From an uncultured Gemmatimonadales bacterium (GTDB lineage Bacteria; Gemmatimonadota; Gemmatimonadetes; Gemmatimonadales; Gemmatimonadaceae), in the NCBI GenBank assembly GCA_963793305.1, contig CAWBZV010000003.1:480001-544000 (forward strand): a stretch of 64,000 nt of DNA, given 5' to 3'. Each line of letters opens with the position of its first letter. The first letter of the stretch is position 1. A program made the translations under genes and the position numbers. This document shows, one piece after another, positions 4,448 through 39,979 of this stretch. The notes beneath the pieces are model-generated. The model worked only from the letters and a program-made list of their open reading frames with translations, was not told the origin of the DNA and did no database searches.

Positions 4448-4458
4448 CTCTGTCGGCC

Positions 4459-21171: not shown

Positions 21172-21306
21172 GGCGGAATGAAGTCTATCGAGTCTGCCCT
21201 CCGCATCACGAGACTCACGGAGCGGATCTCAGACTCGCCTGCGATCGCACAATCTCGCCCATGCCGCTCGTGGGGTGCTCCCGTGAACTGGCCTAGCATT
21301 TCGCCC

Positions 21307-22455
21307 ATGGGCGAGCTAGCGACCTTTGCGGACTCTTGTGAGGTATTCTTTGCCCAGGCGCAGCTGGGAGAGCGAGCCTCGGGGCGGCTAAGCGCTATTC
21401 GTTGCGATCCAAACAATCCGATACTCATCCATGAGCTCGCCGGCGCGGCCTGGCTCAATGGGCGACCAGATCTGTGGTTGCAGGGCACGGCACTGGCTCT
21501 GCAATTGCCGCACGAGACACCTCAATCACTATTCGTACGCGCCTGCGCAAAACTACGGCTTGGTAATTGGTCTGGATGGCGAGATTACGAAGCGCGGCAT
21601 ATCGGGCCCGGCACCGTGACGTCGGAGTCGGCATATGCACGGGCCTTGGCCTGGACAGCTGTGACGTGTGAGAGTGTCGCCGATCTTCGCGACAAGACAC
21701 TGCTCGTGATTGAAGAGGGCGGATTCGGCGACAGCATTCAATCGATGTGTTTTGTTCCTGCGCTCGTCGCCGCCGCCGAGCGCGTCATCCTGATGGTCAA
21801 GCCGGAGTTGGTCACGTTTTTCGAGCACAATTTCGGAAGCGTGGCCGTGATCGCATCGTCCGAGCATCCCCGCTATGATGGCTTCGATGAGTACATCTGG
21901 AGCTCATCGGTACCGACATTGTTCGAGGAGATTCCGCCATTCGAACGGCTGACCGCTCCCAACCCTCGGCGACGATCTCGTGCCGGGACTGAGCCGTCGC
22001 GCGTGGGGATCTGTTGGGCGGCTCGGGTGTGTGAGCCACATGTGGCCATTCGCCGCTCGATTACCGCGCTCGAAGTGCTGAAGCCACTCTTCGCGCGTAC
22101 CGACATCGTTTGGCAGAGTCTTCAGATCGGTCCGCGCGCCAGCGACATAGCGACGTATCCAGCTGTGCAGGGCGCGGATCCGTCGATAACGACGTTCGCC
22201 GACCTGGCGAATCTGGTATCGGAATTGGATTGCGTCGTGAGCGTCGACACAGCGGTTGCCCATCTCGCGGGAAGGCTCGGTGTCCCGATCTATCTATTGC
22301 TTCCCTACGCAGCAGATTGGCAATGGGGGCTCCATGACACCACGCCATGGTACCCATCGATGCACCTTGTTCGCCAGCAAAGACTCGGCGACTGGGAGAG
22401 CGCGATCGACCTGCTGTTGCGAGAGCTCAGCGGCCGAGGGGTCGCCGTTGGCTGA
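21307..22455 (+). CDS. TPR/GT9-like glycosyltransferase paralog 3
   Basis: EEGGFGDSIQ, VSVDTAVAHLAGRLG, TPWYPSMHLVRQ. Confidence 0.8.
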   Translation: MGELATFADSCEVFFAQAQLGERASGRLSAIRCDPNNPILIHELAGAAWLNGRPDLWLQGTALALQLPHETPQSLFVRACAKLRLGNWSGWRDYEARHIGPGTVTSESAYARALAWTAVTCESVADLRDKTLLVIEEGGFGDSIQSMCFVPALVAAAERVILMVKPELVTFFEHNFGSVAVIASSEHPRYDGFDEYIWSSSVPTLFEEIPPFERLTAPNPRRRSRAGTEPSRVGICWAARVCEPHVAIRRSITALEVLKPLFARTDIVWQSLQIGPRASDIATYPAVQGADPSITTFADLANLVSELDCVVSVDTAVAHLAGRLGVPIYLLLPYAADWQWGLHDTTPWYPSMHLVRQQRLGDWESAIDLLLRELSGRGVAVG

Positions 22456-23461
22456 TTCGCCGGCTCCGTGCCTCGAGTACCTGGCCGGAATCGACGCGGA
22501 TCACGTGGCGATTGGGGCCGCTATTGCTCGCGCGCCTCTCGATCCATTGCCCGTGTACGACGTGGCGGACTTGTGCCGAAGTCACGGACGTATTGATCTG
22601 TGGGAACGAGCGGTCAACTGGGCGACTGAGCTGCCCCACGATTCTCGCAAGCAGATCCACCGTCGTGGCGCCATGAAGCTCCTCAGAGAGGATTGGTCGG
22701 GTTGGCTCGACTTGGAATCGAGAATCTACGATCCCGCCGCTGGTTATCTCGATACGGAGTTTGTGCGCCACCTCCGATACGAGACGCTGTTCTGGAACGG
22801 CCGCGACGATCTTGCTGGGCGGACGATCCTCGTGATCGCGGACGGAAGCCTTGGCGACTGCCTGCAAATGTTGCGATATGTGCCATTGGTCGCGCGCCGA
22901 GCGGGGCGAGTGATCCTGAGCGTGAGGCCCGAGGCCGCCCGCTTTGTCCGTGAGGTCGTCGGATCGGCGGTGACTATGATGCTCCACGGGGCCAGTCCAG
23001 ACATTGCTTATGACTACTATGTATGGTTGATGTCATTGCCAGCCCTGCTCGACACGCTCCCGCCACCTCTGCCTGTGCCGTTCCATACAACCCCAATTTC
23101 CTGCACGTATGGAGTGTATTGGACGAGCGATCTGTCTTATGAAGGTGTGCGATGGCTCAACCTGCGTGAGCCGGCGGCACCACTGGTCACTCTTTTCGAG
23201 GCGGCGAAGGTGGTGACGACGCTCAGTGGGATCGTGACCATCGATACGACGGTGGCGCACCTCGCCGGAACGCTTGGTGTACCCACATGGTTGCTGCTGG
23301 AGACGCTTGCCGATGCCCGTTGGGGACTCGGCCAGACGACGCCCTGGTATCCTTGCATGCGAATAATCCGTCAGCAGACTCGAGGCGAGTGGACTTCCGT
23401 CATTGCCGAACTACGAGCATCGATAGACGCCAGCCTCGCTTCGCCTTCGCAGTGCGCGTAG
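22448..23461 (+). CDS. TPR/GT9-like glycosyltransferase paralog 4
   Basis: ADGSLGDCLQMLRY, IDTTVAHLAG, TPWYPCMRIIRQ; shorter C-domain. Confidence 0.75.
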   Translation: MADSPAPCLEYLAGIDADHVAIGAAIARAPLDPLPVYDVADLCRSHGRIDLWERAVNWATELPHDSRKQIHRRGAMKLLREDWSGWLDLESRIYDPAAGYLDTEFVRHLRYETLFWNGRDDLAGRTILVIADGSLGDCLQMLRYVPLVARRAGRVILSVRPEAARFVREVVGSAVTMMLHGASPDIAYDYYVWLMSLPALLDTLPPPLPVPFHTTPISCTYGVYWTSDLSYEGVRWLNLREPAAPLVTLFEAAKVVTTLSGIVTIDTTVAHLAGTLGVPTWLLLETLADARWGLGQTTPWYPCMRIIRQQTRGEWTSVIAELRASIDASLASPSQCA

Positions 23462-23523
23462 CGGCGCCCACTCGCCCATCGAGTCCCTGTTCCCGCACGG
23501 GCTAAGGCGATCGATTGCAGCCA

Positions 23524-24648
23524 ATGGCGTCCATAAGTCTGATCGCTGATCTCCTCAGAACCTGTGCCGATCGACTGCCGGCGGATAGCGAGCCGGATTT
23601 CGAGGAGGTGCGCTCCTCGATGGTCGCGAAATCCAACCTGCTGGCGCTCTATCGCCTCGCGGCGTTGTGTCGCAAACACGGTTATCTCGACCTGTGGCAT
23701 CTCGTCACCAGAAGTGCCCTCGCCATGCCGCATCACGCGTTCGAGCATCTGTACCATCGCGGCAACGCGAAGCTTCTGCTCGATGATTGGTCTGGTTGGG
23801 TCGATCGAGAAGTCCGAGTCCATGATCCCGCGGCTGGATACTTGGCATCCGAATACGTGCGCCAGATCCGCTACAAAACGATCGAATGGGATGGCCAAGA
23901 AATCATCGCAGACAAGACCATCTTGATTCTGGCTGACGGTGATTGTGGTGACTGCATTCAAATGCTCCGTTTCATACCACCACTGGTCGAGCGTTGCCGT
24001 GGTGTCATACTGAGCGTGCGGCCCGAGATGGCCTCATTGGTCAAGCATAACGTTGGCCATCTTGCCTCCATCACGTTCCATGGCATCGACTGCGGCCCTT
24101 TCGAGCGATATGCGTGGTTGATGTCACTGCCCGCTTTGTTCGGCTGTCTGCCGGTATTCACGCCAATGACAGCGCTCAGGCCCAGGACGAGGGCGACGAA
24201 TGCTCGTTACCCCGTCGACATTGGTGTGTGTTGGTCCGAGGGCGGTGATCGCTCAATCGCGCTCGATGAACTTGCGCCACTCTTCGGGCGTCGCGATTGG
24301 CGATGGCATAGCCTTCAACTGGCAGGCGCTGGTGAAGGCGATGGCGACTCCTTTCGCGGGTGTCCGGCGATTCGCCTGCGCACTCTCGCCGATGCCGCGA
24401 ACTACGTGATGGGACTGGACTGTGTCGTGAGTGTCGACGCGGCAGTCGCGCACCTCGCCGGCGCGCTGGGCCTGCCGACGTTGACATTGCTGCGCTCGTC
24501 GGCAGATGCGCGATGGGGGTTGAACGATACCACGCCGTGGTATCCGTCCATGCGGCTGATTCGTCAACGCGCCGCAGGGGATTGGCGAAGCGCCATCCAG
24601 GCACTGGGCGCCGGTATCGAGGCGATCGCGGTCGACCTCGCCGCCTAA
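23524..24648 (+). CDS. TPR/GT9-like glycosyltransferase paralog 5
   Basis: ADGDCGDCIQMLRF, VDAAVAHLAG, TPWYPSMRLIRQ. Confidence 0.8.
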   Translation: MASISLIADLLRTCADRLPADSEPDFEEVRSSMVAKSNLLALYRLAALCRKHGYLDLWHLVTRSALAMPHHAFEHLYHRGNAKLLLDDWSGWVDREVRVHDPAAGYLASEYVRQIRYKTIEWDGQEIIADKTILILADGDCGDCIQMLRFIPPLVERCRGVILSVRPEMASLVKHNVGHLASITFHGIDCGPFERYAWLMSLPALFGCLPVFTPMTALRPRTRATNARYPVDIGVCWSEGGDRSIALDELAPLFGRRDWRWHSLQLAGAGEGDGDSFRGCPAIRLRTLADAANYVMGLDCVVSVDAAVAHLAGALGLPTLTLLRSSADARWGLNDTTPWYPSMRLIRQRAAGDWRSAIQALGAGIEAIAVDLAA

Positions 24649-25787
24649 TGGGTATGCCATCCTCCGCTGGGGTCGTGGAATGGGTCGATGCATGCCGACA
24701 CACTTTCGCCGATCGCGCCGAGGCCTACCGAGTCGCGTTGTACGCGTCACTCGTGGATCCTCAGGGCGATACGCCAATACCTCTGTACCGCCTCGCGAAA
24801 GCCTGCCTGGATAGTGGAGAGTGGTTGCTGTGGCACCAGGGAGTCATGTTCGCGTTCACCCTTGAACACCGAACGGCTCAATCACTCTGCGAGCGAGCGC
24901 TCGCCAAGCTCAGGTTAGGCGACTGGTCCGCATGGCGCGACTATGAGGCTCATGCAAAAAGCCCCGCCTTCAGCGTCGCCCACGCAACGTGGCTTCGCTG
25001 GCGGTACCCGCTATGGGACGGTACCCAGGATATTCGGGATCAAACACTCCTCGTCCAACGGATGGGCGGCTATGGCAATGTGATCTGGTCGCTGCGGTTC
25101 ATTCCACCCATTGCAACACGCGTTCGCCGGCTCATCTGGGATACCAGTCCGGCGCTCATGGATTTTGTGCGATACAACATGAGCCATCTGGCCGCGGTGG
25201 AATCAGTCGATCGCGACCCGCCCGACTTGGACTTCGATTGGCATGTCTGGTGTATGTCGCTTCCGCACGTCAACGGCGGGATACCGCCGTTCGTTCCGCT
25301 CACGGCTCCAGATCCAATCCAATGGCCTCGCTCCCCTGAAAGGCGACTGCGAGTTGGTCTGTGCTGGGCATGCAGCGACGAGGCGCTCGATCAACTGGAG
25401 CGGTCCATTGCATTGAGTTTCTTGGCGCCGCTTTTTTGGCATCCGGGCGTGGAGTGGTACAACCTGCAGGTCGGATCGAGAGCGCACGATAGCGACTACT
25501 ATCCAGGCGTCAAGCAACCACCATTTCCGCTCCGCACATTTGTCGACACCGCGAATTTGCTGGTCGGGTTGGATTGCGTCATCTCGGTGGACACGGCTAT
25601 CTGTCATCTAGCGGGGAGTCTCGGCGTGCCAACGCTGACACTACTCCGCTGTACCGCTGATGCGAAGTGGGGGCATCTCGACACGACGCCTCTCTATCCC
25701 TCCATGCGCTTGATTCGTCAACGGACTCCGGGCGATTGGCTCGGGGTGGCCGAGACCGTGCGTGAGGAACTCAATGCCCGTCTCTGA
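24648..25787 (+). CDS. TPR/GT9-like glycosyltransferase paralog 6
   Basis: TAATG coupling; WDGTQDI, GGYGNVIWSLRF, VDTAICHLAG. Confidence 0.8.
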   Translation: MGMPSSAGVVEWVDACRHTFADRAEAYRVALYASLVDPQGDTPIPLYRLAKACLDSGEWLLWHQGVMFAFTLEHRTAQSLCERALAKLRLGDWSAWRDYEAHAKSPAFSVAHATWLRWRYPLWDGTQDIRDQTLLVQRMGGYGNVIWSLRFIPPIATRVRRLIWDTSPALMDFVRYNMSHLAAVESVDRDPPDLDFDWHVWCMSLPHVNGGIPPFVPLTAPDPIQWPRSPERRLRVGLCWACSDEALDQLERSIALSFLAPLFWHPGVEWYNLQVGSRAHDSDYYPGVKQPPFPLRTFVDTANLLVGLDCVISVDTAICHLAGSLGVPTLTLLRCTADAKWGHLDTTPLYPSMRLIRQRTPGDWLGVAETVREELNARL

Positions 25788-26697
25788 TCCGTACCGACTC
25801 TATCAAGTCGCCGAATCGCATCGAGAGTGCGGCGATGAGGAAAGTTGGAAAGAGATCGTGATGGACGCCTTTCAGCTCCCTCATCGGACCAAGCAACAAC
25901 TCTTCTATCGAGGCCAAGCGAAGATCGCGCTCGGTGATTGGTCTGGTTGGGTCGACCGCGAGGCGCGACTGTTCAACCCCGACGAACAATTGTGGCGTTG
26001 CTCGTACTGGCGCCAGGTACGGGCGAAGACGAAGGCTTGGGATGGCAAAGAGGATATCCGGGACAAGGCACTGTTCGTCATCGCCGATGGAGATGATGGC
26101 GATTGTCTGCAAATGCTCCGATTCATTCCGGATCTCACCGCGAAGGTCGACACGCTCATCCTCGGTGTCAGTCCTGCACTGCTGTCACTCGTGAAGCACT
26201 TTTTCGCCTCAAAGGTGACGGTGACGTTTCGAGAGGTCGATCACGGGCTGCCGTTCCAGCGGTATACATGGATCATGTCGTTACCAGCGCTCTGCGGCGC
26301 ACTTCCGCCGATCGTGCCATTCACCGCGCCCAGACCGCAATCGCCCCCTCGCCTGGCAGATGGGCGTTTTCACGTCGGCCTGTGGACAGCGCCAGAATCT
26401 GTTCCTCCTGCGACACTCGCCGGCATAACAAGCGCACTGGCACGTGACGACATCCAATGGCACGACCTGCGACTGGGCACCGGCGCCATCCGAACGTATG
26501 CTGATGCCGCGAACGTTATCGTGGGCCTGGACTACGTGGTGAGTATCGACTCGCCAATTGCCCATCTCGCGGGTTTGCTCGCGGTGCCGACGCTCGTGTT
26601 TCTCAGCTGCCGAGCTGATCTCCGGTGGGGATTGACCGAGACAACGCCATGGTATCCCTCGATGCACATCACCCGACACTTTGGAGACTCCGTATGA
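25774..26697 (+). CDS. TPR/GT9-like glycosyltransferase paralog 7
   Basis: WDGKEDI, ADGDDGDCLQMLRF, IDSPIAHLAG, TPWYPSMH. Confidence 0.75.
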   Translation: MPVSDPYRLYQVAESHRECGDEESWKEIVMDAFQLPHRTKQQLFYRGQAKIALGDWSGWVDREARLFNPDEQLWRCSYWRQVRAKTKAWDGKEDIRDKALFVIADGDDGDCLQMLRFIPDLTAKVDTLILGVSPALLSLVKHFFASKVTVTFREVDHGLPFQRYTWIMSLPALCGALPPIVPFTAPRPQSPPRLADGRFHVGLWTAPESVPPATLAGITSALARDDIQWHDLRLGTGAIRTYADAANVIVGLDYVVSIDSPIAHLAGLLAVPTLVFLSCRADLRWGLTETTPWYPSMHITRHFGDSV

Positions 26698-26822
26698 CAA
26701 CCGCGTATCGAAAGCCGACGATCCTCTGCCTTGGCGCCGCCGAGGTCTTGACTCGTGGAGGGTTCGGAAACAGGCCCGAACTCCGCACAGGTCCAACTAG
26801 CATCTCCCTGCTCGATCTCTGA
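26694..26822 (+). CDS. Lasso peptide precursor A0: MTTAYRKPTILCLGAAEVLTR|GGFGNRPELRTGPTSISLLDL
   Basis: GGAG RBS, ATGA overlap with the GT7 stop; Y-17/P-14/G-8/T-2 leader; core G1..E8; homologous to the 32.5-33.2 kb array. Confidence 0.88.
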   Translation: MTTAYRKPTILCLGAAEVLTRGGFGNRPELRTGPTSISLLDL

Positions 26823-26831
26823 GGCAGGTAC

Positions 26832-27992
26832 ATGCCATCGAGCGAACAGCTCCTCGATGAGTGTATTCGTCGGTTGAGTCCAAGCAATGCGGCGGCGCTA
26901 CTGCCACGGTTCCGATCGGCATTCGAGCGGTATCCCATCGCGCCGCCGCTCCTGTATAGCATCGCGACCCTGTGCCTGCAGTTCGGATACGAGGAGTTGT
27001 GGGAGCACTACGATCGTCTCGCCTTTGCCCTGCCTCACGCCACCAACGAGGATTTTTATTTTCGATCCGTGGCGAAGCTTCGTCGGAGCGACTGGTCCGG
27101 GTGGTTGGACCGAGAAGCCAGGCTCATCAGCCCGCATGAAGCGCCGATCTGGTACCCGCACTTCCTCGAAATGCAATGGACGACGCGCGCCTGGGACGGT
27201 GTAGAACCGATTCAGGATAAAACACTGTTGGCGATCGCCAATGGCGGGTTCGGCGACTGCTTGCAGATGATACGGTATATGCCGCGTCTGGCGGCAATAG
27301 CTGGTTCGCTCATCATCGCGGTGCGGCCGCAAATCCTCTCGTTGGTCGAGCACAATTTCGGGCGGATCGCCACGGTCGTGTCGACAGAGCGCTTACCATT
27401 GATACCCTTTCAGCGGTACGTGTGGATGATGTCCCTTCCCGCATTGATCGGATCCATACCGGCCTTCGACGCGCTCAGGACTCCCAGCGCGACTCCGGCC
27501 GCTCCGCGTGAGGGCCGGTTGCGAGTCGGTCTCAATTGGGCCGGCACTTCACATCATCCGAACGATCGCGACGACAACCTCCGCTCCATCACACTCGACG
27601 ACCTCTCACCGCTGCTGGAGCTCGAGTGGGTCACATGGTATAGCGTGCAAGTTGGGCGGTGGGCCTCCGACGCCGATCACAATGCCCGCATCGTGCAACC
27701 CTCGACGCCGATCCGAAGTTTTGAAGATTCCGCCAATCTCGTCGCTGCTCTAGACTGCGTCGTGACGATCGACACGGCGGTTGCGCATTTGGCCGGCAGC
27801 CTCAATGTACCAACGTTAGTACTCCTGACATGGCTGCCGGAATTTCGCTGGGGTCTCGTCAGCGAGCGTACGCCATGGTACCCAAGCCTTCTGTTGATCC
27901 GACAAACGTCGCCCGGCGACTGGCCTGGCGTGTTCGATCGAACCTTCCAGCATCTGCGGGCGCTTTATACCGGGGCAGCTGCTTCAGCGTAA
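26832..27992 (+). CDS. TPR/GT9-like glycosyltransferase paralog 8
   Basis: ANGGFGDCLQMIRY, RVGLNWAG, IDTAVAHLAG, TPWYPSLLLIRQ. Confidence 0.8.
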   Translation: MPSSEQLLDECIRRLSPSNAAALLPRFRSAFERYPIAPPLLYSIATLCLQFGYEELWEHYDRLAFALPHATNEDFYFRSVAKLRRSDWSGWLDREARLISPHEAPIWYPHFLEMQWTTRAWDGVEPIQDKTLLAIANGGFGDCLQMIRYMPRLAAIAGSLIIAVRPQILSLVEHNFGRIATVVSTERLPLIPFQRYVWMMSLPALIGSIPAFDALRTPSATPAAPREGRLRVGLNWAGTSHHPNDRDDNLRSITLDDLSPLLELEWVTWYSVQVGRWASDADHNARIVQPSTPIRSFEDSANLVAALDCVVTIDTAVAHLAGSLNVPTLVLLTWLPEFRWGLVSERTPWYPSLLLIRQTSPGDWPGVFDRTFQHLRALYTGAAASA

Positions 27993-29105
27993 GTCTCATC
28001 GAGCAGCGTATTCACCTGAGCGATCGAGCTCGACCAGTCGCCTGGTGCGCATTGCCGAATGAGCCGCATCGCGGGATACCACGGCGTGACGTCCCCTAGT
28101 CCCCACCGCCAGTGGGAATCGTATTGCAAGAGCAGCCATGTTGGAACGCCGAGATTCCCCGCCAGAATGACACACTGAGGTGTCCACGCTGACCACGTAG
28201 TCCAGTTCCGTGATCAGGTCCGCCGTGTCGCCGTAAGTGACGAGTGGCGGATCAGGATTGATCAATGCGGGGTAATCGTTGGCGTCCGCGACGCGATCGC
28301 CGACTTGGAGGCTGTACCATTCCACGTCATCTCGTGCGAGCAACGGCACCGTCTCGGCGATAGGCATTGACCGATCTGGATCCTGCGTGAAGTCGGGACT
28401 GCCGGCCCAGCAGACGCCGGCCCGGATGGGTCGCGTCCGTGGCGGCATTTTGGGACGCCGTCGTGGTGCGGCAAGCGCGGTGAAATCGGGAAGCCGGCCG
28501 AACGTACCTGGCAGCGACATGCTCCACACATACCGGTCGAACGGTATCGTGGGTTTGATCCCATCCAGCCATATTTTGGCGAGTGAGCCGAAGTTGAATC
28601 GAGCGAGAGGGGCCAATCGCGGATACACCATCATGAAGACGGCGCTGGCTATTTCGGTCAACGGCGGAATGAATCGCCACATCTGGAGGCAATCGCCGTA
28701 TCCCTGCTCCGGCAGCACCAGGATAGACTTGTCCGCGAGATCCTCCTTGCCGTCCCACATGCAATGCTTCCAGCAGATATCTCGATATTTGTCCAGATCT
28801 TCGATGGTGTCCGGCGCCCCCAGGCGCGCGCTGTACTCAGCCCATCCGTTCCACTCGCCGCGCTCGATCTTGGCCAGGGCGCGCGCGTAGGTCTGTTGTG
28901 GTGTCACGTGGGGTAGCGCCAGCGCGAGATCGACCTGGTGCTGCCAATCGGGATCGCCTCGCCGTCGAAGCGTGAACGCGAGGAGATAGCGCGGCATGGG
29001 GTTGGCCGGCTGCTGCTCGGCGACGGTTGTCAATTCTTCCGCCGTATAAATGGTGCGGGGGCAACGTCGGTGTGTCGGCACCGGTTCGGAGGTCGGCGCC
29101 GTCAT
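27965..29105 (-). CDS. TPR/GT9-like glycosyltransferase paralog 9 (frameshift at about 28167)
   Basis: Best-conserved EQGYGDCLQMWRF; GVCWAGSP; VDTSVCH then HWRWGL..TPWYPAMRLIRQ in the adjacent frame. Confidence 0.8.
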
Positions 29106-29449
29106 GGTTCGGCGTGACCAGAGGCGACGTTGGGCTCGGTTTCCAGCAATCCGTATTCGCTGAGCGCGGTGACGATCGTCAACACATCGCGTTGCACTTG
29201 CCCCGGCGCGACATCCACGGGCATGGCGTATTCGGCTTCGATCGTCGCGACGATTGATCGTATCGTCGCGCCGCCTTCCAGCAATTCCCAAATGCGGCTG
29301 CCAATGTCATTGAGCCGGTAATTTGCGTGAGTTTGAAGATTGTGAACCACGGTATCGGTATCACCTGGCGCGGCCACCGCATATGCGGAAACCGTGACAC
29401 CGCTGTTGATATCGAGTCGTGCGCGTGTCGTACCTTCAAGCTCGCTCAT
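29102..29449 (-). CDS. PqqD-family RRE coupled to GT paralog 9
   Basis: NYRLNDIGSRIWELLE...IVATIEAEY..DVLTIVTALSEYGLL; ATGA overlap with the GT gene. Confidence 0.8.
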   Translation of the reverse strand: MSELEGTTRARLDINSGVTVSAYAVAAPGDTDTVVHNLQTHANYRLNDIGSRIWELLEGGATIRSIVATIEAEYAMPVDVAPGQVQRDVLTIVTALSEYGLLETEPNVASGHAEP

Positions 29450-29787
29450 GGTCGCGTCCTCGATGCCCGGGTGTGCGAATTGGTGCTCGGCATTCACGCG
29501 ACAGATTCTAAGAGTCACGGGCGAGACGCCTGAACCCCGCCCACAGGCGAATCACTTCCGCCGCTGGCGGATTCGGTGATCGACGCATTGGCGTGTGCCC
29601 CACCTGCCCGGCATCGCAGTCATTTGCTGATTCCAGCACGTCAGTGTTACGCGACGACGTATCACACTGATGGCACGCGACATAGGCGCTGCATCCGCCG
29701 CATATCTCAGCAACCCGCCTTCCAAGCGCTGGGTCTCGTGTTCCAGGCCCCGTAGAGTGTTTCTGCGTACACACGCGGAGTCGCCCA

Positions 29788-30099
29788 GTGTTGTTCACCC
29801 AGCGACCCCAACCAGTGTCTCCGACGGACGCGCGGCGATATCGCGCGATCCCTGGAGTGCTGTCGGGGTGCTTTGAGGAAGAAACCTTCCTGTTGAGTCT
29901 CGCGACAGGTCGGTACTACAAGCTCGACAACGTCGGAACTGAGGTGTGGCAGCTGCTGCGCCAACCGAAGGCGTTTCCCGACATCGTGAGCGACTTGGGG
30001 CAGGTCTATGACATCGCTCCGTCGACGCTAGCGGCGGATGTCGCTGAGCTCATGAACCGCCTCCTTGGCTACAGGGTCATCGAGGTCATCAACTCATGA
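29788..30099 (+). CDS. Lasso peptide B1 protein (RRE, PqqD family)
   Basis: LLSLATGRYYKLDNVGTEVWQLL...YDI...LAADV; directly upstream of B2 and C. Confidence 0.9.
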   Translation: MLFTQRPQPVSPTDARRYRAIPGVLSGCFEEETFLLSLATGRYYKLDNVGTEVWQLLRQPKAFPDIVSDLGQVYDIAPSTLAADVAELMNRLLGYRVIEVINS

Positions 30100-30479
30100 C
30101 ACTACCGAGTGTGATGCACTGTTTCGGACGAATGCTGGCCATAAAAGTGTCGCTCAAAACTCGCGGCTTGGGCGCGACGCTCTCGCGGTACTGCCAATCG
30201 CCGACGGACGTTCGTCGCGACGACTCGATCAGCGATGACCTCGTCGACCAAGTGGCGTTTCAGGTCGCCGGCGCCGCCGCGCTGTTTCCGGGGCGCGCCC
30301 TCTGTCTCGAGCAAACGCTCGTACTGCATGGAGAGTTGCTGCGCATCGGTGTCGACTCTCGGATCCGGTTCGCTGTCACGCCGTATCCATTCAAAGCGCA
30401 CGCGTGGATCGAAGTGCGAGGTCGTCCGATCAATGAGAATCTGCATTGGCTCAGCCAGATGACACTTCTCGAGACTTAA
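30096..30479 (+). CDS. Lasso peptide B2 leader peptidase (transglutaminase-like)
   Basis: ALCLEQTL (catalytic Cys) and PFKAHAWIE (His) motifs. Confidence 0.9.
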   Translation: MTLPSVMHCFGRMLAIKVSLKTRGLGATLSRYCQSPTDVRRDDSISDDLVDQVAFQVAGAAALFPGRALCLEQTLVLHGELLRIGVDSRIRFAVTPYPFKAHAWIEVRGRPINENLHWLSQMTLLET

Positions 30480-30484
30480 TCACC

Positions 30485-32299
30485 GTGGATACCTTCGTCT
30501 GCCTGATGAATACGCGTGGCCACGGTGTCGTCCCCGAGTCACGTCGGCGGTACGGGCTCGATGACACCGGCTGGCAGTCAGCTGGACCATGCAGCATGTA
30601 TGTCTCAAATGATGGATACGGTCCCGTGGCATCGATCTATCGCGGATCGATTGGCATCGCCGCAGGCATCATCCGCCTCGACAACCGCGTCGAGATCCGG
30701 CGCCAACTTCGGGCAAGCGACGACCAGTCCGATATCGCGTTGGTCGCCGCCGTGCTGCATCGCCGAGGCGTCGACGGCGTGCAGGAGCTCGTGGGCGATT
30801 TTGCGCTGGCGTATTGGGACGTTGCGCGGTCGGAATTGATCATCGCGCGGGACTTCATCGGAGTTCGCCCGCTTTATCGCGTACAGGACGGTGATCTGTG
30901 GGGGTTCGCCTCCCACGCGGGCGTTCTTGGCCGGGGACGGGAGCTGTCGCTCGAATTCGTCGCGGACTACATCGCGTTCAATGTGTCGAGACAGCGCACA
31001 CCATATGCCGGCGTGTTTGCCGTCCCTGCCGGAACCGCCCAGGTGCTCAACGGTCGGCGGAGCACCGAGCATCGGTATTGGTCCGCCTATCGGTTCTCGA
31101 CCGATGATCGGATCGACAGCAACGAGGCGGTCGAAGCGTTCAGGCCTTTATTCACCGAAGCGATTCGGCTGCGTCTGACCGGAAAGCAGGACTGCTGGGC
31201 AGATCTCTCTGGTGGTCTCGATTCGTCATCGGTTGTCTCGATGAGTCAGTGGCTCGCGAAGCACGACGGCGCCGTGCACGGCTTGGCGGGAACCTTGACG
31301 TACGCAGACACGCTCGGCACTGGCGACGAGCGGCCGTACGCGAACGCGGTGATTCGCGATTGGCCTCTGCCGAATGAACAATTGATCGACTACGGATTGT
31401 GGCAGGACGACGGCGAGCCGCCCCTTGTCGCGGATATTCCGGACCAGTCGTCCGCGTCGTACGCTCGAGAGCGGCGAGTCTGTCGGATCGTTCGGTCAGC
31501 GGGCGGCCGCGTGCTATTCACCGGAGTGGGCCCCGATCAAATGCTCTTCGGCAACTATGTGTATTTCGCTGATTGGCTCGTGCGGGGGCGAATTCGCGAG
31601 GCGGCTCGGGGGATGTTTCGACTCGCCGCGCTGGGCAGAGGGTCATTCTGGAAATTCGCGTATGAGAACGCCATCAGGCCGTTCTTTGGATCGCCGGCGC
31701 TGAAACGTGAAGCGTGGCCGGCATGGGTTCGGCCCGAGTTCGCACGTCGATTCGCGATCCACGAACGCAATCCAATGGCGTGGACCCCTCGCGGCCGACC
31801 GGGCCGCTACTTTGCCACGGACCTTGCGGGCAACATCGACATCATCACACATGCGATGATCCGCGGCGTGGTCGGTGATATGCTCGACATCCGGAGTCCC
31901 TTCCTGCATCGCCCGCTGGTCGAGCTCTGTCTGCAACTCTCTCCGCAGGTGCTGGCGAGGCCGCGGGACCAGAAGTGGGTCCTCCGCCAAGCGATGCGAG
32001 GCATCACGCCGGAAGAGGTGCTGGAGAGAAGGACGAAGGGGTTCGTCGACGCGAGAATGCAACGATCGTTTGTCGATGAGCACGATCGACTGAATGTGTT
32101 GCTGGATCATTCGGTACTCGCCGAAATGGGTTGCATTGACGCGCGGCTCGCCAAACAATCATTGGCGAACGTGAAGAGCACGACCCTGGGCGAGAATGGG
32201 CGATTACGACATGCACTGACGCTTGAGACGTGGTTGACGGCGAGATCGGGCCGATGGATCGCACGTGATGTGGCACGGCCGGCGTCTGCGGTGGCATGA
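30485..32299 (+). CDS. Lasso cyclase (asparagine synthetase-like, C protein)
   Basis: GDFALAYWD, ARDFIGVRPLY, DLSGGLDSSSV, RSPFLHRPLVE, KWVLRQAM; no N-terminal catalytic Cys. Confidence 0.92.
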   Translation: MDTFVCLMNTRGHGVVPESRRRYGLDDTGWQSAGPCSMYVSNDGYGPVASIYRGSIGIAAGIIRLDNRVEIRRQLRASDDQSDIALVAAVLHRRGVDGVQELVGDFALAYWDVARSELIIARDFIGVRPLYRVQDGDLWGFASHAGVLGRGRELSLEFVADYIAFNVSRQRTPYAGVFAVPAGTAQVLNGRRSTEHRYWSAYRFSTDDRIDSNEAVEAFRPLFTEAIRLRLTGKQDCWADLSGGLDSSSVVSMSQWLAKHDGAVHGLAGTLTYADTLGTGDERPYANAVIRDWPLPNEQLIDYGLWQDDGEPPLVADIPDQSSASYARERRVCRIVRSAGGRVLFTGVGPDQMLFGNYVYFADWLVRGRIREAARGMFRLAALGRGSFWKFAYENAIRPFFGSPALKREAWPAWVRPEFARRFAIHERNPMAWTPRGRPGRYFATDLAGNIDIITHAMIRGVVGDMLDIRSPFLHRPLVELCLQLSPQVLARPRDQKWVLRQAMRGITPEEVLERRTKGFVDARMQRSFVDEHDRLNVLLDHSVLAEMGCIDARLAKQSLANVKSTTLGENGRLRHALTLETWLTARSGRWIARDVARPASAVA

Positions 32300-32488
32300 A
32301 CGTGGGTCACCATGGGTGCTCGGGTCGCAACAAAGAGTGGTGCGTAGTGCCGATAACCGGGACTGGTCACTAGGCTCATCCTAGGCAAAGTCCGTCGTGG
32401 CTCGCCGGTATCGCGTACGAGACCGCGGATGTGTTCTGATAAGCGCTCTTACAAAATCCGCTCGACGTTCGCTCAACAGGAGAAGACA

Positions 32489-32620
32489 ATGGCCAAGACC
32501 TATCGCACACCGAGTGTTGTGACACTTGGTAACGCCGAAGTTCTGACGACCGGCTCCCCGAAGGGGAACCACGCCGAGGTGAGGACTGGCTCGACCTCGA
32601 TCACCATGCTGGACCTCTAA
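32489..32620 (+). CDS. Lasso precursor A1: MAKTYRTPSVVTLGNAEVLTT|GSPKGNHAEVRTGSTSITMLDL
   Basis: AGGAG RBS; canonical leader; core G1..E9. Confidence 0.92.
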   Translation: MAKTYRTPSVVTLGNAEVLTTGSPKGNHAEVRTGSTSITMLDL

Positions 32621-32647
32621 CCACTTCTTGACTTAACGGAGACTACA

Positions 32648-32782
32648 ATGACCAAGACCTATCGCACGCCCAGTGTCGTGACACTTGGTAACGCCGAAGT
32701 GTTGACGACCGGCGCACCGAAGCCGTGGAATCACGCCGAGGTGAAGACTGGCTCGACCTCGATCACGTTGCTCGACCTCTAA
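32648..32782 (+). CDS. Lasso precursor A2: MTKTYRTPSVVTLGNAEVLTT|GAPKPWNHAEVKTGSTSITLLDL
   Basis: GGAG RBS; manual translation; leader near-identical to A1; Glu at core position 10. Confidence 0.92.
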   Translation: MTKTYRTPSVVTLGNAEVLTTGAPKPWNHAEVKTGSTSITLLDL

Positions 32783-32899
32783 GAACTTCACCGCAATGCT
32801 CGTAGCACGGCACTAGTGAGACACTGGCGACCATTGGCCCGATCTCCAGCGTTCTCATCGCCCCGACCCCGATCGCGTTCCTGAATCCTTAGCTACTTC

Positions 32900-33028
32900 T
32901 TGACCTTTCGCCCGCCGAGCGCCGTGACACTTGGTAGCGCCGCAGTACTGACGACCGGCATCAACAAGCCGTGGAACGCGAACGAGCCACACGTCGGCTC
33001 GACCTCGATCACCTTGCTCGACCTCTAA
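32900..33028 (+). CDS. Lasso precursor A3 (TTG start, possibly silent): (M)TFRPPSAVTLGSAAVLTT|GINKPWNANEPHVGSTSITLLDL
   Basis: Manual translation; in-frame stop at 32882 upstream; no RBS; Tyr-17 replaced by Phe. Confidence 0.7.
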   Translation: MTFRPPSAVTLGSAAVLTTGINKPWNANEPHVGSTSITLLDL

Positions 33029-33036
33029 GTACCACC

Positions 33037-33169
33037 GTGACCAAGATCTATCGCACACCGCGCGTCATCGCGCTTGGACCCGCCGATCAGCTGACGACTG
33101 GTCTCGTATGCTCGTCCAATAGATACGAGACCATCGGCTCGAACGTCCATCGCGTTGCTCGATCTCTGA
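33037..33169 (+). CDS. Lasso precursor A4 (1-nt insertion at 33142/3): MTKIYRTPRVIALGPADQLTT|GLVCSSNRYETIGSTSIALLDL
   Basis: GTG start; deleting one A from tcgAacgtcc restores STSIALLDL-TGA, ending flush against the convergent peptidase stop. Confidence 0.78.
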
Positions 33170-35314
33170 CTACCGCTTCTCCGCCTCTCCCGCGCGTAAG
33201 TAGGTGTCGAACCACGCCAAGCGTCGTCGCCACACATCGCGAACGTTCGCGGGAGATGTGATGGCGTGACCCTCTCCCCAGTACCGCACGAACTCGACAC
33301 GTTTCCCCTGGCGAGCGAGCGACGAGAACATCTCCTCCCCTTGTTGGATCGAAACGAAATCCATATCGCCCTGAACGATCATCACTGGCGTATCGATCCG
33401 ATCGACGTAGTTGATGGGATTGTTCCTCGCATAACGCAATGCATTCTCCCATGGCGGCCCACCCATTCGAGTCTGGCCTGATTCTCCACCGGGCAGGCCA
33501 CCAATCCAATCTCCAGTGGCGGCGTCTCGGTAACGGCGAAAGGTGGAGAAAGCACCGAATTCCGATATGAGGTCCGACGGAGCACACTCGGCGATGGCGG
33601 CTTTGAACCGATGGGTGAATTCGATGATCCCATACGTGCTATACCCGCCATAGCTACACCCTTCGATTCCAATCCGATCAGGATCGGCGTATCCCATCTC
33701 GATCGTCTTATCCACCGCGGGTAATACGCCCTTCGGCAGATCGATGAAATTGTCACCGGGCTGTGTCCTGTCGCCGACGAACGGCATGCTCGGATACAGG
33801 ACAAGATAGCCAGCACCCGTCCAGAGTGCGTCCTCCAGACTCGGGTTGGTATCCGCCGCGCTTTGTACGCTTCCGTCGTATACGATCGTCACCATGGGAT
33901 ACCGTCGGCCGGCGACGTATCCAACTGGCAGCTGGAGCGTTGCCGTTAACGAATCGCCCTCCATTCCAAGATATCGGAGCGCGATCTTTCGGCCACGATC
34001 GATTTGCTCGGCGCCAGCATTGAGCGTGAGCACGGTATCGCGCTCGTGCAGCACCAAGTCAACTCGACCATCCGGTCGTGCCTGAACTGCAAGCGGTAGC
34101 GGCTTCCGACCTTCGATCGCGGACGGCGTCGCCTCGATCGGCGTTAATACGGCGTCTCCGTGCGCGCTGATCCGATACCACCGGTCGTCCTTCGGCACAT
34201 TGCGCTGCACGTGAACCACTACGGATCGTCCATTGGTTGCCCACACGGGCCGCGCGGGCCCAAAGTTGAATATCTGACTTTCCATGCCGCCGACAACGGC
34301 GTCGAGTGAGCCGGTTGAATCGACCCCCACCCAACTCGGTGACGTGGCACGGTCGAGCGGGATAATCGCTATGCGAAACCCGGGAATGTATTCTCCATAG
34401 AGTGCGGACGTACCCTTCCACTCGGATATCGGCACGGGGACGACAATCGCAAGGGTATGACCGTCCGGAGACACGGCGCCGACGGACGGCCAGTAGTCCG
34501 GAACGTGCCGGTAGTCACCGATGGGAATGGGTGCGAGCGCGGTGCTCGTGTGCGACCTGACGTTGACCAGGGTGAGCTTCAAAGGCGCAAACGATAGCGG
34601 CGGCGCGCCCGGTCCCGCGTCGAGTACGCTGGCAGTCGATACCGTGCCACGTTCCTGCAGTGGCCAGGCGCGTTCGGTGATCCGCTGGGGTTCGGTCGTT
34701 TCGTGATACCACTCGCCGGTCGCGCCAGCAGGAAGCGCGGCGAAAATCAATGTGCTGTCGCTCAGCCACCGGCAGTGGGCGAACGTTGCGCCCTGGACGC
34801 CATCGTACAGCCCACGCTCGTATTGCGCCAACTGCAGCCTGACCTGCTGATCCACGCCTTGTTGCGTCGACAGTTCGAGCCGATCGCGCTGTCGGTCCCA
34901 GACATAGAGGTGAACGTTCTCCCCTCCCTTGCTGGAAAGCATCGCCAGTCGGCGGCCATCGGGCGACCAAACCGGATCCCAGTACCCACTGGCGTCGGAT
35001 TTACCTTGCGTGAGATTCCGGCGCACCTGTCCGGTCGAGGAGAATACCCACACGTCGGACCGCTCGTGCTCCATGCCGGTGTATCGCTCTCCTGGTGTCG
35101 CGGGTCGATCGATCGTGACCGCCACCCAAGCGCTATCTGGGGACGCGGTGACCTGTCGCGGAGCGGGAATCAGCGTGAGCAGATCATTGACCACTGCCGG
35201 TCGCTTGTTCGCGTGAGTGACATTGACAGAACGTGCGACGTGGTTTACTTGCGCTCGAGCCCAGCCCAAGACGAAGAATTGCAATGCGCACGCGAGGGTC
35301 ACCAATTTAAGCAT
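33170..35314 (-). CDS. Secreted S9-family peptidase, putative lasso isopeptidase
   Basis: Signal peptide; WSPDG propeller repeats; GCSYGG, VQGDMDFV, YWGEGH catalytic triad. Confidence 0.85.
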   Translation of the reverse strand: MLKLVTLACALQFFVLGWARAQVNHVARSVNVTHANKRPAVVNDLLTLIPAPRQVTASPDSAWVAVTIDRPATPGERYTGMEHERSDVWVFSSTGQVRRNLTQGKSDASGYWDPVWSPDGRRLAMLSSKGGENVHLYVWDRQRDRLELSTQQGVDQQVRLQLAQYERGLYDGVQGATFAHCRWLSDSTLIFAALPAGATGEWYHETTEPQRITERAWPLQERGTVSTASVLDAGPGAPPLSFAPLKLTLVNVRSHTSTALAPIPIGDYRHVPDYWPSVGAVSPDGHTLAIVVPVPISEWKGTSALYGEYIPGFRIAIIPLDRATSPSWVGVDSTGSLDAVVGGMESQIFNFGPARPVWATNGRSVVVHVQRNVPKDDRWYRISAHGDAVLTPIEATPSAIEGRKPLPLAVQARPDGRVDLVLHERDTVLTLNAGAEQIDRGRKIALRYLGMEGDSLTATLQLPVGYVAGRRYPMVTIVYDGSVQSAADTNPSLEDALWTGAGYLVLYPSMPFVGDRTQPGDNFIDLPKGVLPAVDKTIEMGYADPDRIGIEGCSYGGYSTYGIIEFTHRFKAAIAECAPSDLISEFGAFSTFRRYRDAATGDWIGGLPGGESGQTRMGGPPWENALRYARNNPINYVDRIDTPVMIVQGDMDFVSIQQGEEMFSSLARQGKRVEFVRYWGEGHAITSPANVRDVWRRRLAWFDTYLRAGEAEKR

Positions 35315-36593
35315 TTGAGTCAATGCACCCGTGGTAGTTCGGATTATACTGATCGCCAGCGACGGGAAAGACGACGCTCGAGCCGTACATGGCCGGGCCA
35401 CCCCGATAGGGTCCCATGGGGAACACCGAGTTCGCGCTCAGGCCGTACTGACGAACGAGACGACGCAAATCACCCTGGCGATGGCCCGTTCCGAACAACC
35501 AAAAAGCTCGCTCGCGGAACATGACGGACAGTTGCATGCTCGCCGACGCCGTGGTCGTCGAATCGGACGTGAGTGTGTCCATGGCCGGTGTTATCGCATT
35601 CTGCCGAAGCGAGTTCAAGATTCCCGACCACGTAGAGACTTGGCCGCCCTTGAGCGCCGCCTCCGCTATCAACAGCTGGGCTTCAATGCCGCTCGCCATG
35701 GTCAATGACGAGGCGCCGGTTGTCACCAACCCATCGGCGTACGTCGTGGTGCCAGAGCCCGAAACGGCGAGAATAGGGAGTCGTGGGTCGCCCGCGCTGA
35801 CGAACGGCAACCCATTCTCACCTTCGCGATCGGACACCGAAACGATCGGGTTCGCGATCGTATTGTTGTAGATCGCGTTGATGTCGGTCGCGCCATCCAA
35901 CTCGGCCGTGTAGACAAAGCCGAGCGACACGTTGGCGACGGCGGCGGCGGCGGCGGTGAAATCGCCGCTATCCGCATAGGCTCGCCCACGCAGAACGGCA
36001 ATCAAGGCGGCGATGGAATCACTGCCAGTCGTGGAGGTCGCCGCGGAATCCAGATCCTCGAGCGCCTGGGTGAGTAATTGCTGGCGGTTGAACACGGGAC
36101 CGTAGCTCGGCGTCGACCCGTCGACGATCGCGAGTGACACTCCAGAGCAGAGGTTCTCGGCAAACTCGAGCTCCACGGCCGCGCTCAGCGCGCGCAATTC
36201 GCCAATGTGCCACACTGGCTCTGGGGCATACTGGCGCAGCGTGGCAATAGCCGCGAGCGCGTTGACTCGCCCACTGCTCAAGTTACCGAACGGGAACCCC
36301 CCGGGATTGCCGAGCGATAAGACCCGCTGATCTTCAGGGAGATTGCCGACTTCTGATTGGGTCGCGACGGTGAACTCGTCAGCCAAAAGGCCGGTGTGGA
36401 ACGACTGGGACGAGAACGCGTTGAAGAGTGTACCCAGCGCACCCGCCCTGAGAGCGGCGGCGCCCGACGCGTTTTGAAGACCACCCTGTGTGATGACCGA
36501 GGGGTCTTGTACGCGGGTTAGGTCGCAAGCGGTAGTCGAGACGAGCAATGCCGGTAGAAAAGCCGCCGCGATTGCGCGCACGAATCGAATCAT
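35307..36593 (-). CDS. SusD/RagB-like lipoprotein
   Basis: Lipobox TTAC, GLLADE, EAQLLIAEA, FRERAFWLFGTGHRQGDLRR. Confidence 0.8.
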   Translation of the reverse strand: MIRFVRAIAAAFLPALLVSTTACDLTRVQDPSVITQGGLQNASGAAALRAGALGTLFNAFSSQSFHTGLLADEFTVATQSEVGNLPEDQRVLSLGNPGGFPFGNLSSGRVNALAAIATLRQYAPEPVWHIGELRALSAAVELEFAENLCSGVSLAIVDGSTPSYGPVFNRQQLLTQALEDLDSAATSTTGSDSIAALIAVLRGRAYADSGDFTAAAAAVANVSLGFVYTAELDGATDINAIYNNTIANPIVSVSDREGENGLPFVSAGDPRLPILAVSGSGTTTYADGLVTTGASSLTMASGIEAQLLIAEAALKGGQVSTWSGILNSLRQNAITPAMDTLTSDSTTTASASMQLSVMFRERAFWLFGTGHRQGDLRRLVRQYGLSANSVFPMGPYRGGPAMYGSSVVFPVAGDQYNPNYHGCIDSNA

Positions 36594-36615
36594 GGCAGGA
36601 CACCTCACGAGTGAG

Positions 36616-39600: not shown

Positions 39601-39979
39601 ACCGTACGGAGCTATCTCGACATCGACATCCGCGTCGAGCAAGATCTGTGTAAGCGCCGCGGCGACGGTAATGTCCGATGCGTTCGAGCCTCACCGTGGC
39701 GCCGGCAGGGAGGATCGACGGCTTGTAGGTGAACCGCAGTGAGGTCTGTTCTTGGATCGCCGTCAACGCCTCGGGAATCGTGGCGTTGTGCAGACGAAGC
39801 ACAAGCCGCTCTCGCAGCGCCGCAAAACTTCCAGCTTCGGCACGTTCAATGTGGGTGCCGACAATCGCGTAGAATGCCGGTTCTCGTGAGGCCAGGTGTA
39901 GTGGCTGGGGCCCTTGCGCGCCCGCGCCGCTACAGAGAATGACTCCGACACTGATGCCGCAGACGACGCCGCGCATCAT
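36616..39979 (-). CDS. SusC/RagA-like TonB-dependent transporter with N-terminal signalling domain (frameshift at about 39690)
   Basis: IEIVKGPSAATLYGTDAANGVIVVTTK, LRLRAAYGESG, terminal Phe. Confidence 0.9.

Follow-up and report, generated by a model that had tools for sequence, protein, structure and literature searches.

Organization of the lasso peptide locus

The window, i.e. the whole stretch of 64,000 nucleotides that was analyzed, harbors a lasso peptide cluster with five paralogous precursors (A0 to A4), an RRE, a B2 protein, a cyclase, an S9 peptidase, SusC/D and FecR/ECF proteins and eight glycosyltransferases (GTs) of the GT9 fold. Its assignment as a lasso cluster is based on the leader, an RRE (B1), B2 and an Asn-synthetase-like cyclase, all of which are present. 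B1 (PqqD; 29788..30099, plus strand) matches PF05402 with an E value of 7.7e-15, and the leader peptidase B2 (30096..30479, plus; PF13471) reaches 53 bits with NF033537 (cut-off 33). For cyclase C (30446..32299, plus; PF00733, E 6e-30) the lasso cyclase model NF033535 is the top NCBIfam match, though its 174 bits lie below the cut-off of 525. A second RRE (29102..29518, minus; PF05402, E 2e-13), whose stop overlaps the start of GT7, and a third one (19776..20126, plus; PF05402, E 6e-13) are also encoded. GT6 (26832..27992, plus) combines a TPR-like helical N-terminal domain with a GT9-like GT-B domain that carries a G-D motif at Asp142. GT1 to GT5 (21178..26697, plus) are five tandem paralogues of the GT6 clade, and GT7 (27965..29105, minus; frameshift near 28160) is sister to P0034, an RRE-GT fusion protein. 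The motif Asp is retained in 33 of 36 GT rows, being replaced by Asn in GT4 and by Ala in the paralogue GT0 (16572..17705, minus).

The gene of an ABC exporter (17775..19650, minus) is split by a frameshift. The S9 peptidase (33170..35401, minus; PF00326) is a candidate isopeptidase, its top match being the AtxE2-family model NF033523 at 86 bits, below the cut-off of 400. It is accompanied by a SusD-like protein (weak PF07980 match) and a SusC-type TonB-dependent receptor (TIGR04056, 377 bits, cut-off 368), together at 35307..39642 (minus), by a FecR anti-sigma factor (minus) and an ECF sigma factor (plus) at 39983..41746, and by a protein weakly matching TPR profiles at 41987-43252. None of the 27 proteins scanned is a GntR regulator, and the precursors follow the cyclase gene. 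A search for kinase motifs within the locus was negative. A long-range inverted repeat (32242..32846, plus) has its arms in the 3' end of the cyclase gene (32242-32257) and in the A2-A3 spacer (32831-32846); the predicted RNA stem encloses A1 and A2.

Precursor copies, predicted rings and the C-terminal tag

Precursor A0 (26694..26822, plus) has its own GGAG ribosome binding site (RBS), its start overlaps the GT5 stop and it lies 9 nt 5' of GT6. Its core begins at 26757, with the acceptor Glu8 at 26778 and the C-terminal tag T-S-I-S-L-L-D-L at 26796..26819 (plus); it matches the benenodin family weakly, below cut-off. The other copies, all on the plus strand, are A1 (32489..32620; Glu9 at 32576, tag at 32594-32617), A2 (32648..32782; Glu10 at 32738, 10-residue ring predicted, tag at 32756-32779), A3 (about 32900..33028; Glu10, tag at 33002-33025) and A4 (33037..33169; Glu10, tag at 33143-33166). 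Of the five copies, only A0, A1 and A2 are intact. Compared with A2, A3 lacks 26 nt upstream, including the RBS, the start codon and the first codons. A4 starts with GTG without an upstream GGAG, and one extra base near 33141 shifts its tail into another frame. Since the assembly is rich in indels (12 of 68 relative-ORF rows are split across two frames, shadow ORFs counted), the break in A4 may be an assembly error; its site near 33141 lies outside the coverage of three public runs. A Ser/Thr-rich tail ending in LDL, ascribed to all five cores in the first-pass annotation, is thus in frame in four, as a 13-residue tail closing with G(S/P)TSIx(L/M)LDL and the stop codon and free of Phe, Tyr and Trp.

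The leaders are of the Y-x-x-P type, and Tyr, Pro, Leu-Gly, Thr(-2) and Gly1 are invariant in all 17 aligned precursors. In follower lasso peptides of the triculamin type, the core is N-terminal, the recognition sequence lies behind it and a canonical leader is absent. This type was rejected for the locus, where every core follows a canonical leader with Thr(-2). Counted from the Gly that follows L-T-x (residue 1), the acceptor Glu occupies positions 8, 9, 10, 10 and 10 in A0 to A4. In the precursor family it lies at position 8 or 9 in 23 of 28 members and at position 10 in five, counted from a predicted cleavage site. Glu10 is the sole acidic candidate in the natural cores of A2 to A4, P0007 and P0009, for which 10-residue rings are predicted.

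An Asn three residues before the acceptor occurs in 5/5 window cores (codons at 26769, 32567, 32729, 32975 and 33118) but in only 5/24 homologues outside, and is therefore a local feature. Outside, Thr is the commonest residue at this position (8, besides Pro 4, Lys 3, Asp 2, Ala 1 and Gly 1), even though 15 of the 24 homologues were retrieved by profiles favouring Asn, and a Gly precedes it in 20/24. N-glycosylation or another modification of this Asn, as initially proposed, would fit its presence in every window copy; however, none of the five cores contains an N-x-S/T sequon (N-R-P, N-H-A twice, N-A-N, N-R-Y), and none of the nine GT-associated precursors of two related loci, L060 and L062, has the Asn, which makes such a site very unlikely indeed. 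The Asn is most likely just one of the residues accepted in a ring turn of the form G-[T/N/D]-x-x-E.

The C-terminal motif is conserved far more widely. T-[T/S]-x-x-[M/L]-[LIV]-[D/E]-[LIV]-stop, anchored at the C-terminus, was found in all 24 homologues outside the window, on about 15 contigs, nine of which homologues had been retrieved by a tail-blind pattern covering the leader only. Thr at -8, Thr/Ser at -7, Met/Leu at -4 and Asp/Glu at -2 are each present in 24/24. The invariance first noted for G(S/P)TSIx(L/M)LDL thus holds for the eight-residue core, whereas the literal form recurs in one homologue. The window copies, with 73% mean DNA column identity, are paralogues and not independent (n = 5), and two of them are damaged, so that recent tandem duplication might leave shared motifs without function; it does account for the Asn, G-S/P and Ile parts of the literal motif. 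For the motif as a whole this is most improbable: the tag is kept where cyclases share 49% identity, and its synonymous changes are as common as elsewhere (pS 0.39-0.53), whereas replacements are rare, which for the eight-residue core already contradicts a lack of function. For the last eight codons pN/pS was 0.33 (four window copies) and 0.26 (seven L024 copies), 0.26-0.37 overall; for ring codons 2-7 it was 1.01 and 0.93, respectively. As judged from these alignments, the tail ends in a real, C-terminus-anchored motif that is under purifying selection.

It had been suggested that sugars attached to Thr/Ser of the tail lock a large ring sterically, in place of the usual aromatic side chains. 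Natural rings are given as 7-9 residues (PMC9266682), and one of 10 would presumably call for a bulkier lock; moreover, Phe, Trp and Tyr occur in none of the five tails of precursors with a 10-residue ring, and 13-residue tails place the Thr/Ser pair 6-7 residues past the acceptor, a plausible crossing point. However, the tag occurs equally with predicted rings of 8 (5), 9 (18) and 10 (5) residues, its invariant Thr lies anywhere from 5 to 12 residues past the acceptor, and the lack of aromatics, true of the in-frame window tails, does not extend to the family (Phe, Trp or Tyr in 10/24 outside tails). The tails also contain Arg, Lys, His, Ile, Leu and Met, and ring-crossing residues are reportedly drawn from 14-17 of the 20 amino acids (PMC12214591). 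In addition, glycosylation prior to threading would require the sugar to get through the cyclase, and glycosylation after it would presuppose a lasso that is already stable. A sugar lock is therefore improbable.

Glycosyltransferases and the proposed reading of the tag

The predicted model of GT6 (pLDDT 91.8) resembles GT9 enzymes, TibC and WaaF/WaaC most closely (Z 17.5, 16.9, 16.6 and 16.1; rmsd 3.1-3.4 over 230-248 residues); the top five rows of the fold search have Z 14.4-17.5 and the next one 10.6. PF01075 gave short C-terminal matches only, barely above cut-off in four of nine scanned GT ORFs and barely below it in GT6, and a PDB sequence search returned no match. GT6 forms one clade with its nearest homologues P0024/P0025 and P0028 (support 96/97), which apparently lie on the same contigs as precursors P0014 and P0005, as judged from equal contig sizes (523951 and 114075), the DNA itself being unseen. 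On a third contig above 10 kb (16609, three precursors), no GT was among the 47 matches listed (8000 candidates scored). RRE-GT pairs adjoin a lasso cyclase in two genomes of the genus. These associations tie the neighbouring GT clade to lasso clusters at the level of sequence and gene order. The clusters of those two genomes, L060 and L062, carry the same clade, one of them with a sister of GT6 (44% identical). All nine of their precursors lack the tag, which is thus no general requirement of the GT clade.

The favoured interpretation, to which we assign a probability of roughly 40%, is that the last eight residues are a tag bound by a GT6-type enzyme and that its Thr/Ser are likely O-glycosylated. 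RRE and B2 would remove the leader after Thr(-2), and cyclase C would join Gly1 to Glu8, Glu9 or Glu10. The hydrophobic-Asp-hydrophobic end of the tail may then dock on the helical N-terminal domain of GT6, where the Asp of the G-D motif would act as base and activate the hydroxyl group, leading to O-glycosylation of the invariant Thr and the neighbouring Thr/Ser. The product would exit via the ABC exporter and re-enter via SusC/D to meet FecR/ECF and the S9 peptidase, a route that has been suggested for isopeptidase-type clusters as well. GT6 is the best candidate reader, and the A0 gene sits within the GT operon, flanked by GT5 and GT6. Prediction of a GT-tail complex, suggested at the outset, gave weak support, with 0.37 for GT6 and A1 residues 14-43 compared to 0.01 for the best control (contact agreement between runs at least 19%, partner pLDDT at least 35); the modelled peptide also comprised the ring and eight residues of the leader, and no interface is given. 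Among solved complexes 116 of 157 attain the score mark, against 2 of 215 mismatched pairs; 18 of the 157 and both mismatches do so with values no higher than 0.60. The tool rates a pass of this kind as more often wrong than right unless the pairing is likely beforehand.

The original proposal of the tail as GT recognition or modification site is thus strengthened by a selected tag and a lasso-tied, TibC-like clade, and weakened by the tagless L060 and L062. TibC reportedly uses Asp110 as base and acts on Ser instead of Thr (PMC4358343), and the RRE-linked GTs suggest leader-based recognition as an alternative route. The tag also follows the cyclase clade equally well, being confined to the one that unites the window, L023 and L024 (support 100/100); the L023 and L024 sequences stop short of the region where GTs would lie.

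This distribution is in line with a tag that is read not by a GT but by the core machinery, which we consider a close, somewhat less probable alternative. The cyclase would hold the C-terminal segment and thereby fix loop and tail while the ring may comprise 8, 9 or 10 residues. Otherwise the segment would be bound on uptake, by SusC/SusD or by the S9 peptidase. It may be trimmed later. Indeed, tail length is nearly fixed per cluster while ring size varies (13 residues in 4/4 in-frame window copies with rings of 8-10, 19 in 7/7 L024 copies with rings of 8-9), although the two L023 precursors differ (16 and 18). FusC is described as accepting changes in the ring more readily than in the loop, and also a ring size altered by one residue either way (bioRxiv 2020.11.25.399105, PMC13352647). 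A downstream S9 gene is common to L023, L024 and the window, SusD/SusC-like genes to L024 and the window, and isolated benenodin-1 has lost five tail residues (PMC13352647). On the other hand, an isopeptidase has been reported to recognize the shape of the loop and to bind astexin-3 with a truncated tail (PMC9266682), lasso machinery is described as usually tolerating tail deletions below the lock (PMC13352647), and this reading alone leaves the invariance of two hydroxyl residues unexplained. C-terminal ends shared without a GT, which favour it, are seen in other lasso loci of these genomes, each with an end of its own, e.g. G-x-V-G-F-G-L in the L068 precursors.

Cleavage of the conserved end might also release a short signal peptide that acts on a TPR-containing regulator or on FecR/ECF, with the lasso as mere carrier. 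RRNPP pheromones resemble such a C-terminal signal, the tag, hydrophobic with a single acidic residue, directly precedes the stop codon, and the weakly TPR-matching protein is encoded nearby. This is quite doubtful, as homologues of that protein flank loci with very different tails (L061, L064, L065, L069) and domain-profile scans found no DNA-binding domain in it.

A bolder, rather unlikely extension of glycosylation by a GT6-type enzyme combines natural 10-residue rings with an octapeptide serving as label and scaffold, whose Thr-Thr/Ser would receive a glycan, perhaps of heptose, from a TibC/GT9-fold array. These would be the first enzymes of that fold to act on a RiPP, and the glycan would either lock the ring or be cargo for SusC/SusD. 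One HldE-kinase-like match below cut-off (317 vs 345 bits) was found in the genome, which has no specific bearing on the donor.

Comparison with known systems

Few RiPP glycosyltransferases have been characterized, most of them GT2 enzymes (PMC11912497). A lasso-tied clade of GT9/TibC fold, with members fused to an RRE, would add a new type to the enzymes that glycosylate peptides, and an eight-residue tag that directs it could be transferred to other peptides. The literature search, which left most subscription journals outside, found no paper on a lasso cluster with such GT9-type GTs. It is likely that the GT group next to the lasso precursors is previously undescribed; the cluster would be a glycosylated lasso system with predicted 10-residue rings. 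The precursor family offers natural test cases for such rings and bears on the role of isopeptidase/TonB-type lasso peptides.

The davasins of Streptomyces davaonensis share a lasso cluster with its own GT and are O-glycosylated, possibly iteratively, at a Ser outside the ring; their IgtG is a deacetylase/GT2 fusion with a DXD motif that uses UDP-glucose (PMC11912497). An enzyme of this type was rejected here, where Pfam matches are to GT9 only and the fold is GT-B; unlike the single IgtG, the GTs of the locus are eight paralogues of the GT9 type of GT-B fold that have a helical N-terminal domain and in some cases an RRE link, and their acceptor is putative. In pseudomycoidin and paeninodin a conserved C-terminal hydroxyl residue is likewise the tailoring site, but there a kinase and a nucleotidyltransferase act on a terminal Ser (PMC9266682), whereas the last residue here is Leu. 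Like TibC/AAH autotransporter heptosyltransferases and WaaC/WaaF (GT9; PMC4358343), GT6 is of the GT-B fold (Z 16-17.5), and as in TibC a G-D motif ends the first strand, its Asp being, as judged from the motif, the presumed base. It differs in sequence (9-15% identity), in its helical N-terminal domain and in a probable peptide acceptor instead of autotransporter or LPS. The isopeptidase-type clusters of astexin, sphingopyxin, benenodin and rubrinodin also encode an S9 peptidase, a TonB-dependent receptor, FecR/ECF and several precursors, and rubrinodin an ABC exporter (PMC9266682, PMC13352647). Unlike these, the window has split B1/B2, SusC/SusD-type uptake, three RREs, a GT array, predicted 10-residue rings and an S9 peptidase below the AtxE2 family cut-off. 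As for fusilassin variants, one cyclase would serve several ring sizes up to 10; the 10-residue fusilassin ring was engineered (PMC13352647, bioRxiv 2020.11.25.399105), whereas Glu10 here is natural and its ring predicted.

Cluster layout and state of the five precursors

The lasso core genes of the window encode an RRE (29788-30099), B2 (30096-30479) and the cyclase (30446-32299). Convergent genes for an S9 peptidase, a SusD-like protein, a SusC-type receptor, FecR and an ECF sigma factor are located 3' of this core, and an ABC exporter, two further RREs and eight paralogous glycosyltransferase-like genes (GT0-GT7) lie 5' of it. A ninth glycosyltransferase-like gene of the same clade is an orphan (2092-3271), frameshifted in the window and whole in G004:C175; three regulator-like genes flank it (1278-5652). 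A Cys-rich protein without a Pfam or NCBIfam family (20087-21171, minus strand) is split in two in the window and forms a single 393-aa frame in locus L067; there, too, its neighbor is a lasso ABC exporter. The same genome harbors a third lasso cluster (G000:C5:654700-657250) with a short-tailed precursor and a cyclase split by a frameshift.

The precursor genes A1-A4 are placed after the cyclase gene; A0, which has an RBS of its own, is flanked by GT5 and GT6. When the residue directly after L-T-x is taken as Gly1, the acceptor Glu falls at position 8 in A0, 9 in A1 and 10 in each of A2-A4. A register shifted one residue later (rings of 8-9) was rejected, as it would give A0 an Arg at -2; it is also contradicted by the Gly at that place, which is kept in 27 of 28 sequences. 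The Asn three residues ahead of the acceptor Glu, reported in the first-pass annotation, was found in all five copies. The LDL tail reported with it is in frame in four of them and lies in another frame in A4, and A3 lacks the RBS and start that are present before A2. The assembly is indel-prone, with 12 of 68 relative-ORF rows split over two frames (shadow ORFs included), and contigs of three public runs leave the A3 and A4 sites uncovered; the breaks in A3 and A4 are thus regarded as apparent. Since the five copies are paralogous, their agreement does not constitute independent evidence.

Conservation of the C-terminal octapeptide

Related precursors were collected in two ways. Profile searches, which favor sequences sharing the tail and the Asn, yielded 15 outside precursors; P0004 and P0011 were repeat proteins and were removed as spurious. 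A DNA pattern of the leader only led to five metagenome loci, among them two syntenic relatives with cyclases 49% identical, L023 (two precursors) and L024 (seven). L021, L022 and L025 from the same scan have leaders of different lasso families that lack the tag, and the counts exclude them; L022 and L025 contain Cys-rich precursor arrays (G-C-x-x-D-G-x-D/E-C) of another family. Outside their own genome, the precursor profiles had no match among 60 relatives or among 400 genomes of the phylum. In the genomes' contig collection the leader pattern gave no match and the cyclase search no locus.

The Asn proved to be a local variant. It occupies position -3 from the acceptor in only five of the 24 outside sequences (Thr in 8, Pro in 4, Lys in 3, Asp in 2, Ala and Gly in 1 each) and in none of the nine found blind with the leader pattern, so that its proposed role as an invariant motif is rejected. 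The preceding Gly at -4 is present in 20 of 24. Counted from the stop codon, all 24 outside sequences have Thr at -8, Thr or Ser at -7, Met or Leu at -4, Leu, Ile or Val at -3 and -1, and Asp or Glu at -2, with a strict LDL in 20. The tails are 12-19 residues long, and ten of the 24 contain Phe, Trp or Tyr. Predicted ring sizes among all 28 in-frame sequences are 8 in five, 9 in 18 and 10 in five; the tagged precursor P0014 has Asp7 as an alternative acceptor. For the final eight codons, pN/pS is 0.33 in the window, 0.26 in L024 and 0.37 over all 13 sequences with DNA; the corresponding values for ring codons 2-7 are 1.01, 0.93 and 0.94. Together with the outside counts, this indicates that the element truly kept is a C-terminally fixed octapeptide, T-[T/S]-x-x-[M/L]-[LIV]-[D/E]-[LIV]. 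The conserved tail is thus real and C-terminally anchored, although the motif as originally written, G(S/P)TSIx(L/M)LDL, recurs in only one of the 24. The observation is confirmed in part; the mechanism around the tag we infer.

Glycosyltransferases and the reading of the tag

The predicted structure of GT6 (pLDDT 91.8) combines a helical N-domain with a GT-B domain. In a structure search this domain was nearest to GT9, TibC, WaaF and WaaC at Z 16.1-17.5, with the following, unrelated row at 10.6; a GT6 sequence search of the PDB gave nothing significant. In PMC4358343, TibC is described as a protein glycosyltransferase that modifies Ser and uses Asp110 as its base. The Asp of a G-D motif after the first strand, probably equivalent to Asp110, is kept in 33 of 36 glycosyltransferase rows and absent in GT4 and GT0. 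These two paralogues, at 24648-25787 (Asn) and 16572-17705 (Ala), group together and are possibly inactive or altered copies.

A GT6 search found 20 close matches, 35-100% identical across the greater part of the sequence, among them the 490-aa RRE-GT fusion P0034, followed after a gap by generic TPR-GT proteins; a search with profile A5 gave TPR matches only, stemming from long outgroup rows. A split RRE and GT pair of the P0034 subclade occurs in the window (29102-29518 with 27965-29105), L060 and L062. Three close matches lie on contigs equal in size to those with two tagged precursors, a putative co-location based on size match. In a phylogenetic tree they form one clade with GT6 (GT7 was placed in a separate FastTree phylogeny); as kin share labels, this is no proof of co-evolution.

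The glycosyltransferase clade is present in three of five other genomes of the genus. In two (L060, L062) it adjoins RRE, B2 and cyclase genes; the third has an orphan member that corresponds to the copy at 2092-3271. By context, it is a lasso-tailoring clade. The nine precursors of L060 and L062 are mostly Thr/Ser-rich, with another leader and another cyclase clade; neither Asn at -3 nor the LDL tag occurs in any of them, and three have the first acidic residue at position 10. The tag is thus not a general signal of the clade. L060 13400-14150 (G005:C241) and L062 13731-14700 (G001:C90) represent a second GT-linked lasso family with the leader ...SDVVR(A/S)T(E/D); some cores have Glu10, and they would begin with the unusual first residues Lys, Ile, Cys, Thr, Leu or Met.

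The distribution of the tag coincides equally with that of the GT6 subclade and that of a single cyclase clade, and does not separate the two. Reading by a GT6-type glycosyltransferase is preferred, at a probability of roughly 0.4, because of the two invariant hydroxyl residues, the position of A0 within the GT operon and the distribution of the GT6 clade. Complex prediction of GT6 with A1 residues 14-43 scored 0.37 versus 0.01 for the best control and lends this weak support: passes at 0.60 or lower comprised 18 of 157 solved complexes and both mismatches that passed. The runs shared at least 19% of contacts at a partner pLDDT of at least 35 and showed no interface. A somewhat less probable reader is the cyclase or the receptor, which would fit the observation that tails keep their length inside a cluster although ring size varies, as well as the ring tolerance described in PMC13352647 and bioRxiv 2020.11.25.399105. 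That tail sugars act as a steric lock, as also proposed initially, is improbable: the lack of aromatic residues in all five tails behind 10-residue rings is the sole point in its favor, and several points from the outside counts and PMC12214591 speak against it.

Candidate modification of another kind occurs elsewhere. L070 (G000:C3:763700-767200), L064 and L067, further lasso clusters of the genus, have long Ser/Thr-rich tails and an adjoining Ser/Thr protein kinase gene, and are candidates for tail phosphorylation. The long tails of loci in which a kinase motif is present contain 6-9 Ser/Thr, and those of loci with neither enzyme 0-4, in a comparison of few, related loci that missed the L060, L062 and L067 precursors and carries no test value.

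Inverted repeat around the precursor genes and comparison with known systems

The last codons of the cyclase gene (R-S-G-R-W) are complementary to a conserved spacer that follows the first precursor genes, and the two arms form a predicted RNA stem that encloses precursor genes. The arms are located at 32242-32257 and 32831-32846 in the window (16 nt each, 573 nt apart), 2543-2557 and 2933-2947 in L023, 7089-7104 and 6762-6777 in L024, 13343-13366 and 13710-13733 in L060, and 13631-13651 and 14365-14385 in L062. Two pairs are changed on both sides between families and represent compensatory changes. Of these five regions, the window, L023 and L024 were compared with shuffled sequence: pairing exceeded all 40 shuffles each, and arm pairing probability was near 1 in whole-region folds. 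No such excess over shuffles was seen in L064-L067, L069, L070, L025 and the C5 cluster of the same genome, and Rfam gave no match across 26000-34000. In L062, additional copies of the arm from the cyclase gene's end, all non-coding, precede later precursor genes (13916-13937 and 14120-14141), as if duplicated along with them. At a guess, the stem might process or stabilize the precursor mRNA.

A literature search, with most subscription papers outside its reach, found no description of such a cluster type, and the metanodin supplement had no GT or LDL entry. The enzymes of the window resemble BAHT by fold, a likeness that does not establish membership. In its predicted way of working the cluster resembles isopeptidase/TonB-type lasso clusters (PMC9266682). 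It shares glycosylation in a lasso cluster, here predicted from the genes, with the davasins (PMC11912497), but unlike in the davasins, the enzymes are not GT2.
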